Notes under the pieces: generated by a model
What the model saw: the letters and a program-made list of their open reading frames with translations, nothing else
What the model was told of the DNA's origin: nothing
The model's database searches: none
Shown: positions 4,620 through 34,438 of the stretch, piece by piece
How the letters are laid out: every line of letters starts with the position of its first letter
Position numbering within the stretch: the stretch's first letter is position 1
Source: Nitrososphaerales archaeon
GTDB taxonomy: Archaea; Thermoproteota; Nitrososphaeria; Nitrososphaerales; UBA213
Reading direction: 5' to 3'
Assembly (NCBI GenBank): GCA_965197925.1
Contig: CBDAOC010000018.1
Coordinates: 160,001-224,000, forward strand
Length of the DNA: 64,000 nt
Translations under genes and position numbers: made by a program

Positions 4620-4801
4620 GTTTCAATCCTTGTTATTATGGATTCATCATTATGATTATGATCATTCGTTCATAACGATCCCAGAGTGTCGGTTTCAATC
4701 CTTGTTATTATGGATTCATCATTATGATTCAAGTGTATGCTCATCGACCTCAATCCGTATATTAGTTTCAATCCTTGTTATTATGGATTCATCATTATGA
4801 T
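4620..4801 (-). CRISPR. CRISPR mini-array A: 3 identical 37-bp repeats, 2 spacers (35 and 36 bp)
   Basis: GTTTCAATCCTTGTTATTATGGATTCATCATTATGAT at 4620, 4692, 4765; reverse complement ends ACAAGGATTGAAAC, the usual 3' handle. Confidence 0.92.
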
Positions 4802-23038: not shown

Positions 23039-26000
23039 TCATATGTGGCCAGTAGTTACTAAACGAAGAATAGAAAAAATTGGTTTTATATCTCCCTTAA
23101 TTATGAGCTTCACAGCGGAATAATGCCTCACCGTTCTGACAAGTCCCCCCCCAACATCATTCTCACCGCCATCTAACCTATCTATACCTATACCACCAAA
23201 CAAGTTATCATCTCCATCTTGTCCAAATAAACTGTCATCCTCTGTTCCACCAGACAAACCATCATTACCATCCCCACCAAATATACGGTCATTTCCAGAA
23301 CCACCAAATGCTCTGTCATTACCTTGACCAAGACTTATGAAGTCGTGTCCCATTCCACCACCTGCTGTATCATTACCATTTCCTCCAAATATCTTATCAT
23401 CTCCATCTCCACTACAGATTATGTCATTGCCGCCTAATCCAACTATGGTATCATTTCCTCCCAATCCATGGATTACATCAACTTCGCCTGTTCCCACAAG
23501 GATATCATTACCTGCAGTGCCTATTAGAGTAGGCATCACATTAAAGCAGTTTAGCCCAATTCCTTCAATATTTATGATACCATTAAACTCCTGGTTCATA
23601 GATGAACCATCTCTGATATCCATGTAATTTGCTTCAAGGTCCATCATCTCTGTTATCACAGATACGGGAGGAGTTTCAGGAGTGCCAGGCGTTGCATCAA
23701 CCAGTATCGCCATTGGTATGGTTATCTGTGCTACAAATGTTCCAGTATTGGTACCTGTCTCCAATAGTGTAGTATTTACTGCATTGAAGAAAGAGTCTAT
23801 TTCTCCTGGTGCACAGCTATTGGCATCACCACCTAGTATACCAGATACCGCTGGATCTACCTCTGAGCATACTCTTTCTTCACTTAACTCGAAGAAGACA
23901 AAACTATCAATGGGTAGGTGGTACCTCTCTTGGGAATCTGCTCTTCTGTTAAGGTCCTCATCCTTTATGGTCAGGAAGGCATCCTGTCCAAATGAGAATA
24001 AACTCCTATCCCATTCTATCATACCATCTCTAGTTTCGTAGTCGAATGTTACATTTACTTCCCTGAAGAAATCTACGCTGTCAGTATCGAAGTATGTGAA
24101 CGCTAATCTGTTGGGTGTAACTAATCTATTCGGTACCCACATCTTCACTGGATCACCAGTCAAGGTAATGTCAGCCAATATATCCGACACGGTGTCGAAT
24201 TGGTTGAACGTGAAAAAATCAGCCCTCCCGCTGAATACACTGGAGTTAGAACCATCTTCACCAAGGTCCATCCTGTAGGCAACGTTTGAGAATGCAGTAC
24301 CTATAGGTGAGGCGATATTGTCAGGCTCCTGATCGGTTGGTGCAGGAGAGAATACTACGCCGAGTCCAACTATGTCTACTAGTATGGTGTGGGCAACTAG
24401 ACTTATGATATCAGCCGTATCGATTATTCCTGAATCATCATCTAGTAAGAGTGTAGTTACTCTAATCTGGTCCTCTGGTTCAACCATTGGATAGTCTACC
24501 AAGTCAAGAACTCTGAATGCACCCACAGAGATCCTACTTGTTGTTAGGTCTCTGTCGAAACCAACAGCATCGCTACCTGTTAGTGTGTCCCAAGGATCAC
24601 CTGGTCCAATTACACCAGGAGACAAATCAGGTAAGCTATCATAAACTTCTCCAGTCAATGGATTTCCGTCTATGTCTCTATTGTCCGTCTCTTTTATCTG
24701 AAAGTCAACTATCTGTGATGCATGTACACATGTCTCGTCGAATGCGATCTCTGAATCTGTTTCTCCATCAGCCATACATGCTGGATCTACAGCGTCTATC
24801 TTTGCAACTAGTTGTTCGATTCCTGTTGTGGTATGAAGTTGTTGTACATTCATGTGCAGAAGGTTATACCTTGGCATGTCAACGGTAAGCAATTCATCAT
24901 CAGGTATAGGACCTGCGCCCAATAGGCCGAGAACTACATCCCTTCCTATTACCTCACCTGTAGATCTGGTGATTCTTGCTACTTGTGTGACAAAGTTCTC
25001 TTGCTGTTCATCCAGCAATGAACCGCCAAATTCCTGTAAGTTATTTACCCTTATCTGTCCCAGAATCTGGGCTTTAGTGGCCGTTGTACTGAATTGGACA
25101 TCATTGATATCGTCAATGGTTACACTGGTATCAATCATGATGGCATTGGGATTGTCAAAGCCGATCCGATCTGTGGTAAATACTAGGGAGAACTTGTCAT
25201 TTTCTGTTGGTAAATCAAATTCACTATCCCTGCTGACTGCTATAATATCAAAAAAATGAGCTTGGAACGCCTCTGGACCGAACGTGCCTCCTGTAGCGTC
25301 AACTACATCATCATCGTTGAAATCTGCAAGAACGTTAGCTCCTGTGTCATTTAGACCGAACAATGCAGTATCCCCTTGCGCTGACAAGAATATAGCTTCC
25401 CATATCTGAAGGACGTTGTTCAATGTTGGGTCAAATATTCCACCGGCATCAAGAGCAGTCCTCGTGTTAATTAGAGGGATTGGTTCTCCAACTTCTAATA
25501 TGTTGTTTGCATTCCTTCCATCACGTGGTTCACTTGCTGCGCTACTCAAGTTCTGGTCAGGATCTGTGACAATAAATACCGCTCTATCAGCAGAATCAAA
25601 AACCTCTCCATCAACACTTGTAATGCCATCATGTAAAGCAAATGGAACACTGCTGACTAAATCGAAGTACTTGAAATTAGCAATTCTGTCTCTAACACCT
25701 GCGAATATTGTAGACCTGTCACCTTTTCTTGCTTGACCCGTGTTGAAGCTGCCAGAGTTTGGTTTGGCTGATGCTTCATTGATCCTAACTACAGATGAAA
25801 GGTCTCCTGGTTGTGCAGCACTGATATCTATTGGTATAGCGGTACCTGGTAAGAATACAGTATCGATATCGTCAAATTCTGTAGTTAATCTGGCATTCTC
25901 TCTTACTAGAATGAATGAGGAGAGTCTGGTACAAAGTTCACTTCCCTATCCAGAGATTCTGAAAAGGCGAAGATCCATGCTACAGATTCAACTCCATCGT

Positions 26001-26268: not shown

Positions 26269-27148
26269 GAAGTCATCCCAATACTCTCCAATACATCATA
26301 ATCGACGAAATGATAACAAATGCCAGATAGTTTTGTGCATTCTTCTCATATCTGATCCTGGTTCTGTGGAACCCATTCTTCAACCAGGCAAAGAATCTCT
26401 CCACAACATAGCGCGTCTTGCCGTATAGGTATTGTTCTGTATTATCATTTTGTTGTTGTGTCTTACTGTTTTTTCTGTAAGGTATGCAGTCAGAGATTTT
26501 TCTTTTGGTGAGGTATTTCCTGATGAATTCTGCATCATAGCCCTTGTCTGCTTGGCACCGCGCAATTTTTCTGATAGATCTCTCATCCAGATATTGTGAG
26601 ATGCCATCCATCACGTCTACAAATCTTGCAGAGTCATGCTGATTTGCAGGACCCATCACTACTGAGACTGGCAGTCCGTTTTGTTCCACCGCAACGTGTA
26701 TTTTTGTGCCTGAAATCCTGTTGAATCCGTTGTATCCTATGACGCTTCCCCTTTTTTGGCCGGAACTGATGACGAATCGACCGTTTTTTGCAGCTGCATC
26801 TTGCCTGATCTGTGGGCTGATTTGACTGCAGCGGAGAGGATATTCTTCCATATTCCACGTCGCTGCCAGTTCTGCAGTCTGCGGTGCGCAGTTGATTTGG
26901 AGCCGTACCTTTGTGACATCCCAGTCCACCTGCATCCTGTTATCCCGACAAACAGGATTCCGTTGACTGTCTTTCTGTCGTCTGCCCTTGGCCTTCCGGT
27001 TCTGGCTGGCTTGGGGAGATGCGGTGATATCATCTTCCATTGTTCACCTGTTATCTCCTGAAATTTCATGATCTGCTACGGGCAGCATTGCAAATAGATC
27101 CAAATGATCGTCAATTATTCACTAAATGATCAGTTTTGGGATCAGTTG
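26269..27148 (-). mobile_element. IS5-family element type B, copy 1 (apparently intact, -1 frameshift type)
   Basis: ORFs 26737-27069 and 26273-27040 overlap at GCC AAA AAA GGG G; imperfect TIRs; DKGYD and RYVVERFFAW motifs. Confidence 0.93.
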
Positions 27149-28757
27149 GATAAAGGTAAACGTTGACTTCGTAGAACTTTCAGCTTGATGTATAACTTCC
27201 CATCCTTTTCGAATGTTTCAATGTGCTCAATATCCCGTTTTCCTAAATTACCAAACCCTCGTTGCTTCCATTTACCATTGAACCTATAAAATCCATTTTG
27301 AAGGTAGAACACGTCATCAGCATGATCCTTGGAAGAAAACTCACCTAACTCCGAGGAGTCTAGGCCAAGTTCTTTGGTGGTGCAGATTGAATCGGTTGCA
27401 AAACTAACAACACCCCTTCCCAAGGCATTATCAACCACAAATTTGTAAAGCTAAGCTCTAGTACTCCCTGTTATGGTTGCAAAAATAACAGGGCAGAATA
27501 AGTTTCCTATTACGTGTTTAACTTTCTGGCCTGTCTTTCCGTATATAGAATTTAGAATTAACTTTATGACTGATTGACGTGGATCGTTAGCAGTCTTTAG
27601 TTCCATCCTTTTCTGGTAAAGGTCTTCAATAAAGTTCTTGTATGGACGATAATCAGAGTTTGGGATAAACTGCCGAGATTGCAATATTTTATAATATGTA
27701 TTTGGACATGCTCTCAGCTCATCTATCGTTGCATATGTTATGAAACGGCCAGAAGGAAAGCTCAAGTCGCCATTAACTCTAAAAGGAAATGGTGCGATGT
27801 AATTCCCGTCTGGAATGTCTGCCAGAATTTTGAAAAAGCCTAGCTTTGCGTCATAATGAATATTGTTTCCATTTATCCACCTTCCGTCAGTCAGATCTGG
27901 AAGTTTAGCATTTTATCTGGATATGCCGAGTTTATATCATATAGGAATGCCTTGCCAATGAACCCACGTTTCAGCATCTCAAATCTTCCCCCAAAATATG
28001 ATCGAAAAGCCAAGTCCTGTACGTCATAGGGAATGGAATCAAACAGTGGAAAGTTTAACCCACTGTTTATCACCACCTTTTCTGCTAGATATGCAGGTGA
28101 GAGCCATTTTTGTGGAAAAAATCCAAAGATATCATAAAACAGATGTATCCAATGTTGTGATAACTCTTCCGTATACTTACAGTCCTGAATACAATAATTT
28201 CTTACCTCATTAGTATTACGGCGATAAAACCTTGGAGAAAATTGACTTCTATCCCCCTTGAAACCTAGATACGACTCATCTACGGGGCCTATATTATCTT
28301 GGTAATCCTTTGCAAGACCCTTACCGTAGAATTGCGCTATATCATAAAACTTTACGGAATGATGACCTTTATTGATAGTGAGACATTTTTTCGGATAGTA
28401 AGTATAGCGGTAATCTCCATACTTGAACGATAATTTTCCAGTAGTCTTATACGTGCTTAACGCATTCCCAAACACTGCTTTTAAAATAACTTCAGCATCA
28501 TATTCCAATCGATAGAAGAAATTCCATGCACCTTGGTACTTCTTACAATAAAGAAATCTTGTCAAAGACATAGGCGTTATTTTATCGAGATACCTTTTAT
28601 CAGAATCTGCTATTAGAAATACATCGCCCTGATAGGTTTCTACATCTACAGCATAGACTTTTCGTGGTTCTGATTTTGCTGGATCTCTGTACTGGATTTT
28701 ATTAGTCCATAACTTTCGTAGATCCTTGTAGTCTGTTATGGAGATGGATTCTGCCAT
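27149..28757 (-). pseudogene. Protein-primed family B DNA polymerase (casposon-type); one frameshift, one in-frame stop, 3'-truncated by IS5
   Basis: ExoI VDVET, ExoIII YCIQD, SYFGGRFE, motif A YDINSAYP, motif B KLILNSIYGKTGQ, motif C ATDS across ORFs 27891-28757, 27451-27765, 27142-27438. Confidence 0.9.
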
Positions 28758-29720: not shown

Positions 29721-30359
29721 ATGATTAGCAGTGAACCACGCAGAACAGACAAGAGTGTCCCTAGGAGGACGGAGTTTGGAGAAGTAAAGCAAAGAGAGAT
29801 ATCGATTCTTAAAACCATCAAGGAACATCCAAACATACATCACAACGCATTGAAGAAAATTATTGTTGAGGAGCTGGATCTTGTAGCAATTAAAACATTT
29901 GACCGATTAATAAAAGAATTGATAAAAACTTACAAGATTTCTTTTACTTATGAGAATAATAAAAAGCTCTATTCGATTCCAAATATTTCAATTCTACAAG
30001 ATTCTCAGGATTTAATAATACCGTATCTAAACTCTATGAACGAGCATCTTAAAATATTTGAAAAAGTGTATCCAAGGCTGTCTTATTATGAGAAGGTTGT
30101 AATTTCAGAGCATTTTGTTAAACAATTGCTGAGTAACTTATACGGGATAGATTTGTACCGTCAAATTAATTCTGATAAAAAAATAGAAGATTATCTTCAA
30201 ATCAAAGATGATTTTATGAAAAAGATAAGGAAGATTTTAGAAATATTCTCCCACGATTCTGCCGGTGGTGCTTTAACTTCCAACCTTCTATTTAGCATAA
30301 TAAATCTGAATCCAGATCAGAATGCCGAAGTAGCCTCCCTAATGAATTCTAAGAAATAA
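29721..30359 (+). CDS. Winged-HTH-like regulator, divergent from the pPolB operon
   Basis: ILKTIKEHPNIHHNALKK...KTFDRLIKEL...KLY N-terminal wHTH pattern. Confidence 0.65.
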   Translation: MISSEPRRTDKSVPRRTEFGEVKQREISILKTIKEHPNIHHNALKKIIVEELDLVAIKTFDRLIKELIKTYKISFTYENNKKLYSIPNISILQDSQDLIIPYLNSMNEHLKIFEKVYPRLSYYEKVVISEHFVKQLLSNLYGIDLYRQINSDKKIEDYLQIKDDFMKKIRKILEIFSHDSAGGALTSNLLFSIINLNPDQNAEVASLMNSKK

Positions 30360-30374
30360 TAAAATTCCTCTATT

Positions 30375-30605
30375 CTAATCAGATCCACTTCCAGAGTCCA
30401 CCTTGAGGACCTCACAAAATTCTTCTACAATAGTTATTTCGGAGAGGCTCTTTACCTTTGGTTCTCTGCTTGATTGCGTTTCTATTTTTTCTTTGATTAC
30501 TTTCCGTATAGGAGCTGAAGGAGTGCATCCCTCTTTGTTGCATATATCCACTAATCTATTATGTTCATCCTCTGTAAGTTTGTTAGATACCATTCGTTGA
30601 CCCAC
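30375..30605 (-). CDS. Small RHH/CopG-like protein (left IR copy)
   Basis: RMVSNKLTEDEHNRLVDICNKEGCTPS strand-helix-helix pattern. Confidence 0.6.
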   Translation of the reverse strand: MGQRMVSNKLTEDEHNRLVDICNKEGCTPSAPIRKVIKEKIETQSSREPKVKSLSEITIVEEFCEVLKVDSGSGSD

Positions 30606-30670
30606 GGTAGACCTAGGTAGACAATAGATAGACCTGAGCTAAAAAACTTTCGATTATAATAAATTCAACG

Positions 30671-30777
30671 CTTACGACAAGCGTCAGTTTTCTAGGCGTA
30701 AAAGGGGGGGATACCATTTTTATTCAGTAGCTATAAAAAGTGATTCCCCCCTCCTAGGCACGGATTTGTGTCGCTTA
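30671..30777. mobile_element. Head-to-head pair of putative casposon termini
   Basis: ...AAAAGGGGGGGATACCATT, about 19 bp, then AAGTGATTCCCCCCTCCTAGG...; each side has a further copy at 31723 or 34277. Confidence 0.6.
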
Positions 30778-30861
30778 CTAGATTATAATACACGTTATGG
30801 TCTACCTCTATAATCGAAAGTTTTTTAGCTCAGGTCTATCTATTGTCTACCTAGGTCTACC

Positions 30862-31092
30862 GTGGGTCAACGAATGGTATCTAACAAACTTACAGAGGAT
30901 GAACATAATAGATTAGTGGATATATGCAACAAAGAGGGATGCACTCCTTCAGCTCCTATACGGAAAGTAATCAAAGAAAAAATAGAAACGCAATCAAGCA
31001 GAGAACCAAAGGTAAAGAGCCTCTCCGAAATAACTATTGTAGAAGAATTTTGTGAGGTCCTCAAGGTGGACTCTGGAAGTGGATCTGATTAG
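30862..31092 (+). CDS. Small RHH/CopG-like protein (right IR copy)
   Basis: Identical to 30375-30605. Confidence 0.6.
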   Translation: MGQRMVSNKLTEDEHNRLVDICNKEGCTPSAPIRKVIKEKIETQSSREPKVKSLSEITIVEEFCEVLKVDSGSGSD

Positions 31093-31247
31093 AATAGAGG
31101 AATTTTATTATTTCTAATTAAGCAATGCAGCTAAGGTAATCAATATCCTTCTTTTGGGCGATATTTTTTACCATATATAAAAACAAAGGTGTAGATCCCC
31201 AACTATAATTAACCCTATATGATCCTTATAGAATAAATGATTGAGAA

Positions 31248-31722
31248 ATGAAAGTGTGGAGATCCTTCGGGGAAGCCAGAAAGTTTGTACATTCATTAAA
31301 ACTAAAAAATAAGAACGAGTGGCAACAATATTGCAAGTCTGACGAAAAACCTGGTGATATTCCGTCTTCACCGGATAAGATCTATCGAAATAAGAGTTGG
31401 TATGGTTATCTTGACTGGTTAGGGAACGAGGCGAAAAGGGGTAGAAAACTTTGGCTAGGAAAGCATTTTGCAGAAGAACGTCAGAGAAAGCTGAACAAGG
31501 CGGGAAGGGGTAGAAAGAAATCGGAAGAACATAAAAGAAAGAAGAGCAGGTAAAAACGGTAAAAAAAGAACAGAAGAATCAAAGAGAAAGATGAGTGAGG
31601 CGGCAAAGGGCAAAACAAATTCTGGTCACTTCAAAAAAGAGGTAATACCTTAAAATAGAGGAAAAAGAGGAGTATATTCAGAAGAAACTAAGAGAAAGAA
31701 GAGCGAGGCGATGAATGGTAAA
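31248..31722 (+). pseudogene. Integrase-repeat-unit protein with NUMOD3-like repeats, broken
   Basis: SFGEARKFVHSLKLK...EW..YCK....DIPSSPDKIY....WYGYLDWLG, then SEEHKRKKS, TEESKRKMSEA and SEETKRKKSEA across stops and shifts. Confidence 0.7.
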
Positions 31723-31761
31723 AAGAGTATCCCCCTCCTAGGCACGGATTTGTGTCGCTTA
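31723..31761 (+). repeat. Third terminus-like motif
   Basis: AAGAGTATCCCCCTCCTAGGCACGGATTTGTGTCGCTTA; last 31 nt identical to 30747-30777. Confidence 0.85.
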
Positions 31762-32142
31762 TCTAAATTAATACGCAGGTTATGATTAGTTGGATAATGG
31801 TTAAGATCTTAATAAGTCAATACATTGTGAAAAGTTTATTCTTGCACAGTTATGGACTTTTAATAAAAGTCAAGAATATCAGATTAGTATTCTCTTAAGG
31901 AATAGATCCCTTCAATGACAATAGGGAAATCTTAGAGCTGCCTGCAAGAGCTTGTCCATTTTAAAGTGATCATACAGGGGAATGGTTATGTTTCTATTGA
32001 AGCATTGTAGTACTTGTCAGAATCAAATATCAATGTAGTATTGTTGGATAAGCATGGTAAGTTATACACCTTGATTAAACTGTAGATAGACCTTGGTATA
32101 TGTTAATTAACTTTAAAATCGAGATTATACATATGATATATT

Positions 32143-32614: not shown

Positions 32615-33178
32615 ATGCCACAAACAAAGGCGGTTGTTAGCGTAGAAAATGTCGTTGCGTCTGCAAGCGTAAATCAAAGGATAAATCTTAACGATATAAC
32701 ACAAAAATTTCCTGACGTCGAATACCATCCCGATCAGTTCCCGGGCTTGGTCTTTAGGATAAAATCACCCAAAACCGCTACCTTAATCTTCAGTACTGGC
32801 AAGATGGTTTGTACAGGTGGCAAATCAGAAGATCAATCTATCAAGGCTGTAAATAGTGTAGTTCAGAAACTGAAGAAGGGTGGGATTCCCATAGAAAACG
32901 AACCTTCCATAGAGATACAGAACATAGTTGCATCTGTCAATCTAGGGGGCAAGATAAACATAGAACTTGCTGCTAGAGTGTTACCTAGGAGCATGTATGA
33001 GCCAGAGCAGTTCCCTGGCTTGATACACAGAATACTGGATCCTAAAAGTGTAATACTTCTATTTGCTAGCGGTAAGCTCGTATGTACTGGTACCAAGAAG
33101 GAGAACGAGGTTTATAGAGTAATAAACGCGTTGCATATACTGCTGGAAGAGAAGGAGTTAATGATATACGAGAGTTAA
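32615..33178 (+). CDS. tbp: TATA-box-binding protein
   Basis: Two repeats: ENVVAS..YHPDQFPGLVFR..LIFSTGKMVCTG and QNIVAS..YEPEQFPGL..LLFASGKLVCTG. Confidence 0.97.
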   Translation: MPQTKAVVSVENVVASASVNQRINLNDITQKFPDVEYHPDQFPGLVFRIKSPKTATLIFSTGKMVCTGGKSEDQSIKAVNSVVQKLKKGGIPIENEPSIEIQNIVASVNLGGKINIELAARVLPRSMYEPEQFPGLIHRILDPKSVILLFASGKLVCTGTKKENEVYRVINALHILLEEKELMIYES

Positions 33179-33214: not shown

Positions 33215-33244
33215 GTTTGAATCGAACTATTATAGAATTGAAAG
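33215..33244 (+). CRISPR. Solitary 30-bp CRISPR-type repeat
   Basis: GTTTGAATCGAACTATTATAGAATTGAAAG, same family as the repeats at 33585 and 33651. Confidence 0.75.
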
Positions 33245-33584
33245 TCTTAAGAATATCTTAAGACCATGTGGTATAATCTGGATGCTGATGATGAAAGGAA
33301 AAGCCGTCTGAAGTTTGATGAATAATATAGGCGAGTTGAAGCATCCTCTAAAGCCCACATTGATGGAATCTTGACAATCTTATCAGTCTTGGGAGTAGTT
33401 GGAGAGTATTTGAAGAGTGTTTTAATGTAATCTTAAGAAATGTTAAGAGTGGTTTGAGAGTATTTGAAGACCATCATAAGAGTATTTTAATACTCAATCA
33501 TAATTATAATTACGTACAGGGTCTTCTCGATTCTATTCGTGGAAAACTACTTGTAGAAAATTCTACGAATAGAATCTATATCAT

Positions 33585-33680
33585 GTTTGAATCGAACTCT
33601 TATAGGATTGAAATGATGTTAGCGTTATGGTCGTGGTAACTGATTGTGCGGTTTGAATCGAACTAATTGGAAATTGAAAC
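33585..33680 (+). CRISPR. CRISPR mini-array B: 2 divergent 30-bp repeats, one 36-bp spacer
   Basis: GTTTGAATCGAACTCTTATAGGATTGAAAT, spacer 33615-33650, GTTTGAATCGAACTAATTGGAAATTGAAAC. Confidence 0.8.
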
Positions 33681-34017
33681 TTGAATTCGATCTAATTCCG
33701 TTCTACAGAGACAACAAAACTAACTTTTTTGATATGATCTTTTAGATGGATACTAACACCGTAACCTTTCAGTAATTTGATATTGTAATGGTTCTTCTTT
33801 CCTTTGAGTAACATGATCTATCAGATTTCACTGATCAAAATCTTTACGGCAGAGTGTCATATTTTTAAGCGGAAAGTGGGACATACAATTTTTTTGATTG
33901 GTGTTGTAGTAAGGAATATGTTAGAGGGTTGTTCATTCCAACTTTTCATAACCTATCTATAACTTTGGAGTATTTGCATCTTATGATAGAACTCTAGAAC
34001 ATCGTAAAAAGAAACAT

Positions 34018-34257: not shown

Positions 34258-34323
34258 GAATTTATTGATGAAGAATAAGAGTATCCCTCCACCTTACGCA
34301 TGGAAATCTGACGCTTGTCGTAA
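34258..34323 (+). mobile_element. Fourth terminus-like motif preceded by an aEF-2 3'-end-like sequence
   Basis: GAA TTT ATT GAT GAA GAA TAA runs into GAGTATCCCTCCACCTTACGC...CTGACGCTTGTCGTAA; last 16 nt match the reverse complement of 30672-30687. Confidence 0.6.
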
Positions 34324-34438
34324 AGCTTGTATGTATCATATTCGAAAAGTTTAGATCTATTCTACCTGTAGTCTAAGATCATGGACTCTACAAGATTCGA
34401 GTTACAAAACAGATAGTATATAGCAGCGTTATCCAATT

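Follow-up and report, generated by a model that had tools for sequence, protein, structure and literature searches.

What do a solitary CRISPR repeat and a single-spacer mini-array do among casposon debris? The question was raised by a 466-nt region in a 64,000-nt stretch of a Nitrososphaerales genome (the window), for which the original prediction had offered an element-borne crRNA regulator, an RNA decoy, or simply a decayed array. Three 30-nt repeats on the plus strand have their first 14 nt and the ATTGAAA handle in common, namely, the solitary R1 (33215-33244), R2 (33585-33614), which opens the mini-array, and R3 (33651-33680), which closes it behind a single plus-strand spacer (33615-33650). 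The gap of exactly 340 nt between R1 and R2 and the spacer length of 36 nt were as first reported. Within the gap lie a predicted box C/D sRNA (33280-33346, plus strand), a low-complexity GAGA/TTGAAGA tract (33380-33500, strand not given) whose length differs among relatives, and a conserved plus-strand segment 5' of R2 (33500-33584), a leader by position only, bearing a 16-bp hairpin (arms 33529-33544 and 33561-33576). The region folds better than shuffled sequences (z = -3.3), partly due to this hairpin and to palindromes. The likely working part of the locus, as judged from sequence, is the predicted sRNA, and we consider it moderately probable that an imported rRNA guide, which may have taken the place of the native gene, lies stranded here among casposon debris together with a dead mini-array.

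R1, R2, and R3 differ from the repeat of a long array in genome G186 at 2, 1, and 7 positions, respectively, so that of the three repeats described as divergent only R3, with 7 changes, is truly degenerate, and R1 and R2 (1 change) lie near the consensus of a Nitrososphaerales family. At up to 6 mismatches, R1 matched three sites in the window, whereas all 20 shuffled windows were free of matches. The family pattern was found in 48 of 301 genomes of Nitrososphaerales compared to 1 for the reversed control; the unpublished genomes G107 and G270 enter only such order-wide tallies, including this count and that of casposases. Among the loci listed, long arrays with this repeat adjoin complete cas operons, whose genes we presume from their order and motifs. 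The family also occurs as lone or paired repeats at ordinary intergenic sites of other genomes, with a casposon motif at 0 of 9 such loci. The repeat belongs to the I-B family, as the repeats of an active I-B array do, with the type label taken from PMC6563490.

Other short arrays were observed in the host genome (G000). One has the same 30-nt repeat, two spacers, and a partial repeat duplication (G000:C20:871625-873720, L001/L002), and two lone degenerate repeats 257 nt apart are separated from it by an IS. A second repeat family of 37 nt forms a 3-repeat array at window positions 4620-4801 and at G000:C19:7563-7744; the arrays on the two contigs have identical spacers and similar flanking genes, possibly through duplication or assembly redundancy, and a further short array of this family lies at a contig end (C1:1-305).

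A cas locus for the 30-nt repeat was sought elsewhere in the host assembly (2.9 Mb, 20 contigs, 98.7% complete), and no Cas6 or Cascade was found there. Family searches for DevR, Cas6, RAMP, Cas5, and Cas7 gave no match, and Cas6, Cas7, Cas5, and Cas8b were absent from the results of family searches and of tblastn with the Cas proteins of relatives. The latter matched only cas4, cas1, cas2, and a Cas3-like helicase, which is a type I-G cas3 beside cas8g1. Cas6 was present in 0 of 9 genomes of the family; a search for type I-G Cas7 was uninformative, with no match even in control genomes. The partial type I-G locus (G000:C19:173783-177951) contains cas3g and cas8g1 only, within the stretch viewed. 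At G000:C20:38914-40643, cas4 is accompanied by cas1 and cas2 in one 432-aa frame, which is ~76% identical to Cas1 of marine relatives and has no array alongside; a gene of this island is presumably integrase-like.

For the spacer, the suggested search for full or seed targets yielded none above chance. Its best matches in the host genome reached 23 to 24 of 36 nt, the same level as other spacers, and its seed matched 4 sites besides itself compared to a shuffled mean of 5.9, none of them near the locus. Among viral sequences one 17-nt match extended to 24 of 36 nt only, blastn against phages gave E values of at least 1, the second half of the spacer had 0 matches, and 150 other genomes had 0 matches.

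In relatives, the segment preceding R2 is conserved ahead of a repeat in G004:C218 and G005:C12 and lacks a repeat in G005:C27; it showed no blastn similarity to the leaders of long arrays, though in relatives it stands ahead of the first repeat. In G004 this hairpin segment leads into a repeat, a spacer unlike that of the window, and a degenerate repeat, an arrangement in keeping with a decayed array, as originally allowed, and a single R3-like repeat follows the end of the TATA-binding protein (TBP) gene in G005:C6. The comparison of metagenome and RNA runs covered 4 of 23 runs. Run X11 yielded a 1,150-nt contig from the TBP gene to beyond R3 with 48 differing letters, 12 gaps, and an identical spacer, the cassette being ~95% identical; the short form therefore appears to have been inherited as such, and a long ordinary array at this place was not seen in the relatives compared. 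The repeats fit a shrunken, frozen array rearranged by recombination rather than casposon cargo under CRISPR-like selection, and the orphan I-B repeats probably do nothing now, given that no Cas6 or Cascade was found.

If a I-B system were unassembled or located in co-occurring cells, R2-spacer-R3 could act as a CreA/CreR-like regulator, R1 as an RNA anti-CRISPR, or both. Other spacers between such repeats, at depths similar to this organism's, in runs X9 and X11 make an unassembled array or system possible, and the near-consensus R1 and R2, the two ends kept by all three repeats, the strong hairpin ahead of R2, the ~95% identity of cassette and spacer in X11, and the cas4-cas1-cas2 module at C20 agree with such a role. 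It is nevertheless very unlikely, as cas6/7/5/8b were not found in the genome nor Cas6 in any of the 9 family genomes, and in view of seed matches at chance level, of the different spacer in G004, and of the lone family repeats common at ordinary intergenic sites. The likeness to CreA/CreR and Racr, as presented in the accessible text of PMC9458426, PMC10651486, and PMC11656645, is one of outward form, i.e., a lone repeat, a single-spacer array, and a degenerate repeat, whereas here no cognate Cas6/Cascade and no seed-plus-PAM target were found and the locus lies outside a cas locus or virus. The spacer had no seed-plus-PAM match in the promoter of a neighboring toxin or cas gene, genome-wide seed matches were at chance level, and the mini-array is not placed in a cas effector locus. 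With respect to Racr units, the lone repeat lies amid casposon debris, and it was absent from the 20 intact casposase loci and from viral contigs; no target of the spacer in a related mobile element, as in virus-type mini-arrays, was found. A CreT-like toxin ahead of the hairpin was considered and rejected, as no matching mini-ORF was seen. Accordingly, the part of the original prediction that saw an element-borne regulator or decoy was not borne out: there is no I-B processing or effector gene in the searches made, no spacer target, and no array at the 20 intact casposase loci. A lone repeat with a mini-array on mobile DNA may be neither anti-CRISPR nor regulator.

The casposon setting itself was upheld. 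Casposon end motifs were located at ~31719 and ~34270, both on the plus strand; the first is followed by a frameshifted 5' remnant of the casposase cas1 gene (feature 31719-32080, remnant 31824-32080), and the second has EF-2-site-like sequence ahead (34270-34350). Overlooked earlier, a further end motif with a casposase cas1 5' remnant faces the array from the minus strand (33734-33897, remnant 33734-33817). A 307-bp perfect inverted duplication surrounds two back-to-back end motifs (30352-31115, strand not given); the wider block holds five end motifs, and a protein-primed-type PolB gene of a dead family 1 casposon lies in three pieces on the minus strand (27142-28757), two of them matching PF03175. 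A second, intact TBP gene (32615-33178, plus strand), which shares 85% identity with the main copy at C17, stops 36 nt ahead of R1; a TBP tree did not place it. The end motif is backed by a C1 copy that follows a 12/13 match to the EF-2 target duplication given in the available part of PMC8464041.

The family 1 casposon genes, pPolB and casposase, are present solely as broken pieces, and the block as a whole is a field of dead family 1 casposon sequence. By eye, no direct repeat was found in the flanks of the facing ends at 31719 (plus) and 33897 (minus), hence no target duplication enclosing the cassette. None of the 20 intact casposase loci fetched, out of 48 genomes with casposase matches, had an array or C/D RNA, and the sole repeat-like match there has 8 mismatches; the repeat and C/D patterns had 0 matches in viral contigs. 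Casposon remnants begin directly after the stop codon of a gene that we take to be guaA-like in G000:C20:205499, G004:C14 (L067), and G005:C24 (L106); the name guaA is absent from the main text of PMC6563490. Elsewhere, window positions 23039-25549 encode an 836-aa protein with RTX-type calcium-binding repeats, and 13 tRNA genes at G000:C16:24379-91424 have an encoded CCA and no introns, unlike most others, and probably come from a virus or other element. A sigma-70 promoter scan was discarded, the model being unsuited to an archaeon.

The predicted sRNA in the gap is the one place in the entire 2.9-Mb genome that matches a strict C/D motif. It has a 6-bp terminal stem (33280-85 and 33341-46), box C (33288-94), box D' (33308-11), box C' (33316-21), and box D (33336-39), with the D' guide at 33295-307 and the D guide at 33322-35. 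Box D is TTGA instead of the consensus CTGA, as in the marine native copies. Five Rfam C/D families match weakly, each below its gathering score. The core pattern occurred in 62 of 201 genomes compared to 4 for the reversed control; 27 of the 30 loci inspected are C/D RNAs, and 20 of these 27 adjoin eIF5A and/or dph6, genes that we presume from motifs. Metagenome matches were in the eIF5A/dph6 context in 35 of 36 cases, and the remaining one is the repeat-linked form seen in G005. An upstream 22-mer occurred at 2 loci in genome contigs, which were not counted as further relatives. Fibrillarin, Nop5, and L7Ae genes of the host are open frames with no stops. By orthologues, motif, and the guide-23S covariation described below, the gap RNA is a member of a conserved Nitrososphaerales C/D family, and it agrees with every C/D feature that sequence analysis could test: boxes, stem, rRNA guide, and host machinery.

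The D' guides of the family covary with 23S rRNA. Guides with AAGAG pair with UCUU in 23S (G015, G020, and G026) and those with AAAAG pair with UUUU (G019 and G033), whereas the window copy carries AAAAG and the host 23S, like that of G001 and G005, has UCUU, leaving one mismatch to the 23S of its own host at guide position 7. The D guide, which differs from that of the donor-type copies, forms 9 Watson-Crick pairs with 23S at 48 nt from the D' target (shuffle P = 0.00068 within 100 nt); this 9-bp match was noticed post hoc, and its chance anywhere in the rRNA operon is 0.023. Two guides to 23S sites 48 nt apart correspond to the double-guide pattern set out in the available text of PMC4644070. 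The sRNA would bind L7Ae, Nop5, and fibrillarin and would direct, according to the +5 rule, 2'-O-methylation of the two 23S cytidines, predicted at C20:679315 and C20:679363. These presumably correspond to about E. coli C2510 and C2558, close to the peptidyl-transferase center. As an alternative D' target, C32 of tRNA-Lys was dismissed: the only tRNA-like 9-nt match inspected is coding sequence, and 23S accounts for the covariation. In archaeal double-guide C/D sRNAs, two guides address sites within 100 nt and one mismatch away from +5 is tolerated (Dennis et al. 2015, PMC4644070; Breuer et al. 2021, PMC7994747, in their available parts). The window copy resembles them in its four boxes, terminal stem, and two 23S sites within 100 nt, and differs in falling below all Rfam gathering scores, in being apparently foreign to the host family, and in its position, with a CRISPR repeat on one side and a leader-like segment on the other.

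The origin of the copy was examined by alignment. Its first 42 nt match marine copies (L127, L151, and L153) at 40 of 42 positions and six native copies of the family at 27 to 32 of 42, which, together with the guide-23S mismatch, suggests import from a Nitrosopumilaceae-like donor, a family name that we infer. Marine-type organisms with an eIF5A-linked copy co-occur in the metagenome runs compared. At the eIF5A-dph6 site, 6 of 8 relatives have kept an intact native C/D copy; that of G005 has decayed with loss of box C, and in G000 none is recognizable (alignment score 33 compared to a shuffle mean of 32). Locus comparison across relatives places the loss in exactly the two genomes with the imported copy, G000 and G005, and since these are kin the displacement counts as about one event. 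The site is rearranged in G004, where a gene that we take to be amoC-like lies upstream of dph6 in place of eIF5A (L167, G004:C166). In this reading, mobile DNA would have brought in the copy, its D guide would have been altered, and the native copy at eIF5A-dph6, once displaced, would have decayed. No intact carrier element for the cassette occurred among the 20 casposase loci or the viral contigs, and the route of transfer is putative. A pattern search for the donor of the new D guide was noisy (matches in 64 of 301 genomes), and none of the 9 candidates retrieved from it was a C/D RNA.

The same observations could describe a block that is inert throughout, with the C/D RNA as further casposon-borne debris and the native guide decayed independently in an IS-rich genome. 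Between G000 and G005, the C/D RNA is conserved at 61 of 65 aligned columns and its flanks at 91 of 105, a difference that is not significant (Fisher P = 0.20) and agrees with inert debris, as do the D' guide mismatched to the host 23S, the broken genes and scattered ends all around, and the lack of coverage in RNA run X16. That run, which consists of contigs only and is unable to show small RNAs, gave a 253-nt exact TBP contig and nothing from this organism over the cassette. On the other hand, G000 and G005 have both kept the four boxes, the stem, and the two guide cores intact, the changes in run X11 fall outside the boxes and paired guide bases among the differences listed, and the D guide matches a site near the first target. 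On balance, inert debris is an unlikely account.

An imported guide stranded with array remnants remains the preferred reading: type I-B remnants (leader, repeat, one spacer, degenerate repeat, and stray repeat) would have come to lie among family 1 casposon ends. The arrangement could also be read as an evolved unit in which the C/D RNA was once freed or matured by Cas6 cutting at R1 (and R2), CRISPR processing serving a casposon-borne methylation guide. R1 lies directly 5' of the C/D RNA in G000, G005:C11, and L135, each time with casposon-end sequence alongside, and G005 has two more C/D RNAs of the same scaffold with other guides (C24:13409-13444, L106; C28:15135-15170, L107) near casposon or mobile debris, one of which has a 10-nt pairing with the 23S of G005 (probability by chance 0.008). 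These extra copies, however, have no repeat nearby, the distance from R1 to the C/D RNA varies (36 versus 47 nt), Cas6 was not found in the family, and none of the 20 intact casposase loci has the cassette; we give this proposal the least credence of all. Among 251 genomes, only G005 had these extra forms. A broader proposal, that casposon-linked DNA moves rRNA guides between archaeal families as a CRISPR-repeat-tied cassette whose scaffold retargets and displaces the native copy, with Cas6 maturation perhaps once involved, is doubtful.

Guides on the move have been described for Pyrobaculum calidifontis, where scaffolds of mobile, MITE-like C/D sRNAs moved to unstable regions and their guides were replaced (Lui et al. 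2018, PMC6009581, available text). The three G005 copies of one scaffold with different guides are similar; in P. calidifontis within-genome duplications are flanked by inverted repeats, whereas the present case combines casposon ends and CRISPR repeats with what appears to be a transfer from one family to another. Krupovic et al. (2019, PMC6563490) and Wang et al. (2021, PMC8464041) described integrated elements of thaumarchaea that bear stand-alone CRISPR arrays, as well as family 1 casposons, and I-B-linked repeats on mobile DNA, pPolB, and casposase are common to both settings. As far as the accessible text goes, the published arrays are long, located on ICE/CIE and not on casposons, and served by the I-B system of the host; here there is one spacer, and no system was found. 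In the open-access literature, no paper was found that joins C/D sRNAs with casposons, CRISPR repeats, Cas6, or horizontal transfer, and the supplements of PMC6563490 and PMC6009581 could list such cases. The locus yields a conserved Nitrososphaerales C/D sRNA family, below all Rfam gathering scores, with a covariation-supported predicted 23S target, and offers a case in which horizontal replacement of a guide for rRNA modification, of which no description was found in that literature, can be put to the test. If the guide is active, mobile DNA can alter methylation sites of the host ribosome.

At the neighboring gene of the native copies, eIF5A of the host (C18:~283560) has an insertion of 21 to 22 nt that interrupts the conserved KPGKHG site, presumably the site of the hypusine lysine. 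All 7 family relatives whose viewed sequence includes the motif have the insertion too (L162-L170 and L093); it measures 17 nt in G074, and is absent in G020, G043, and L151. No report of an eIF5A intron was found in the literature, where the related papers mainly concern cbf5 and tRNA introns. The insertion breaks the frame in most cases and folds like a bulge-helix-bulge in several, making it a candidate archaeal mRNA intron.
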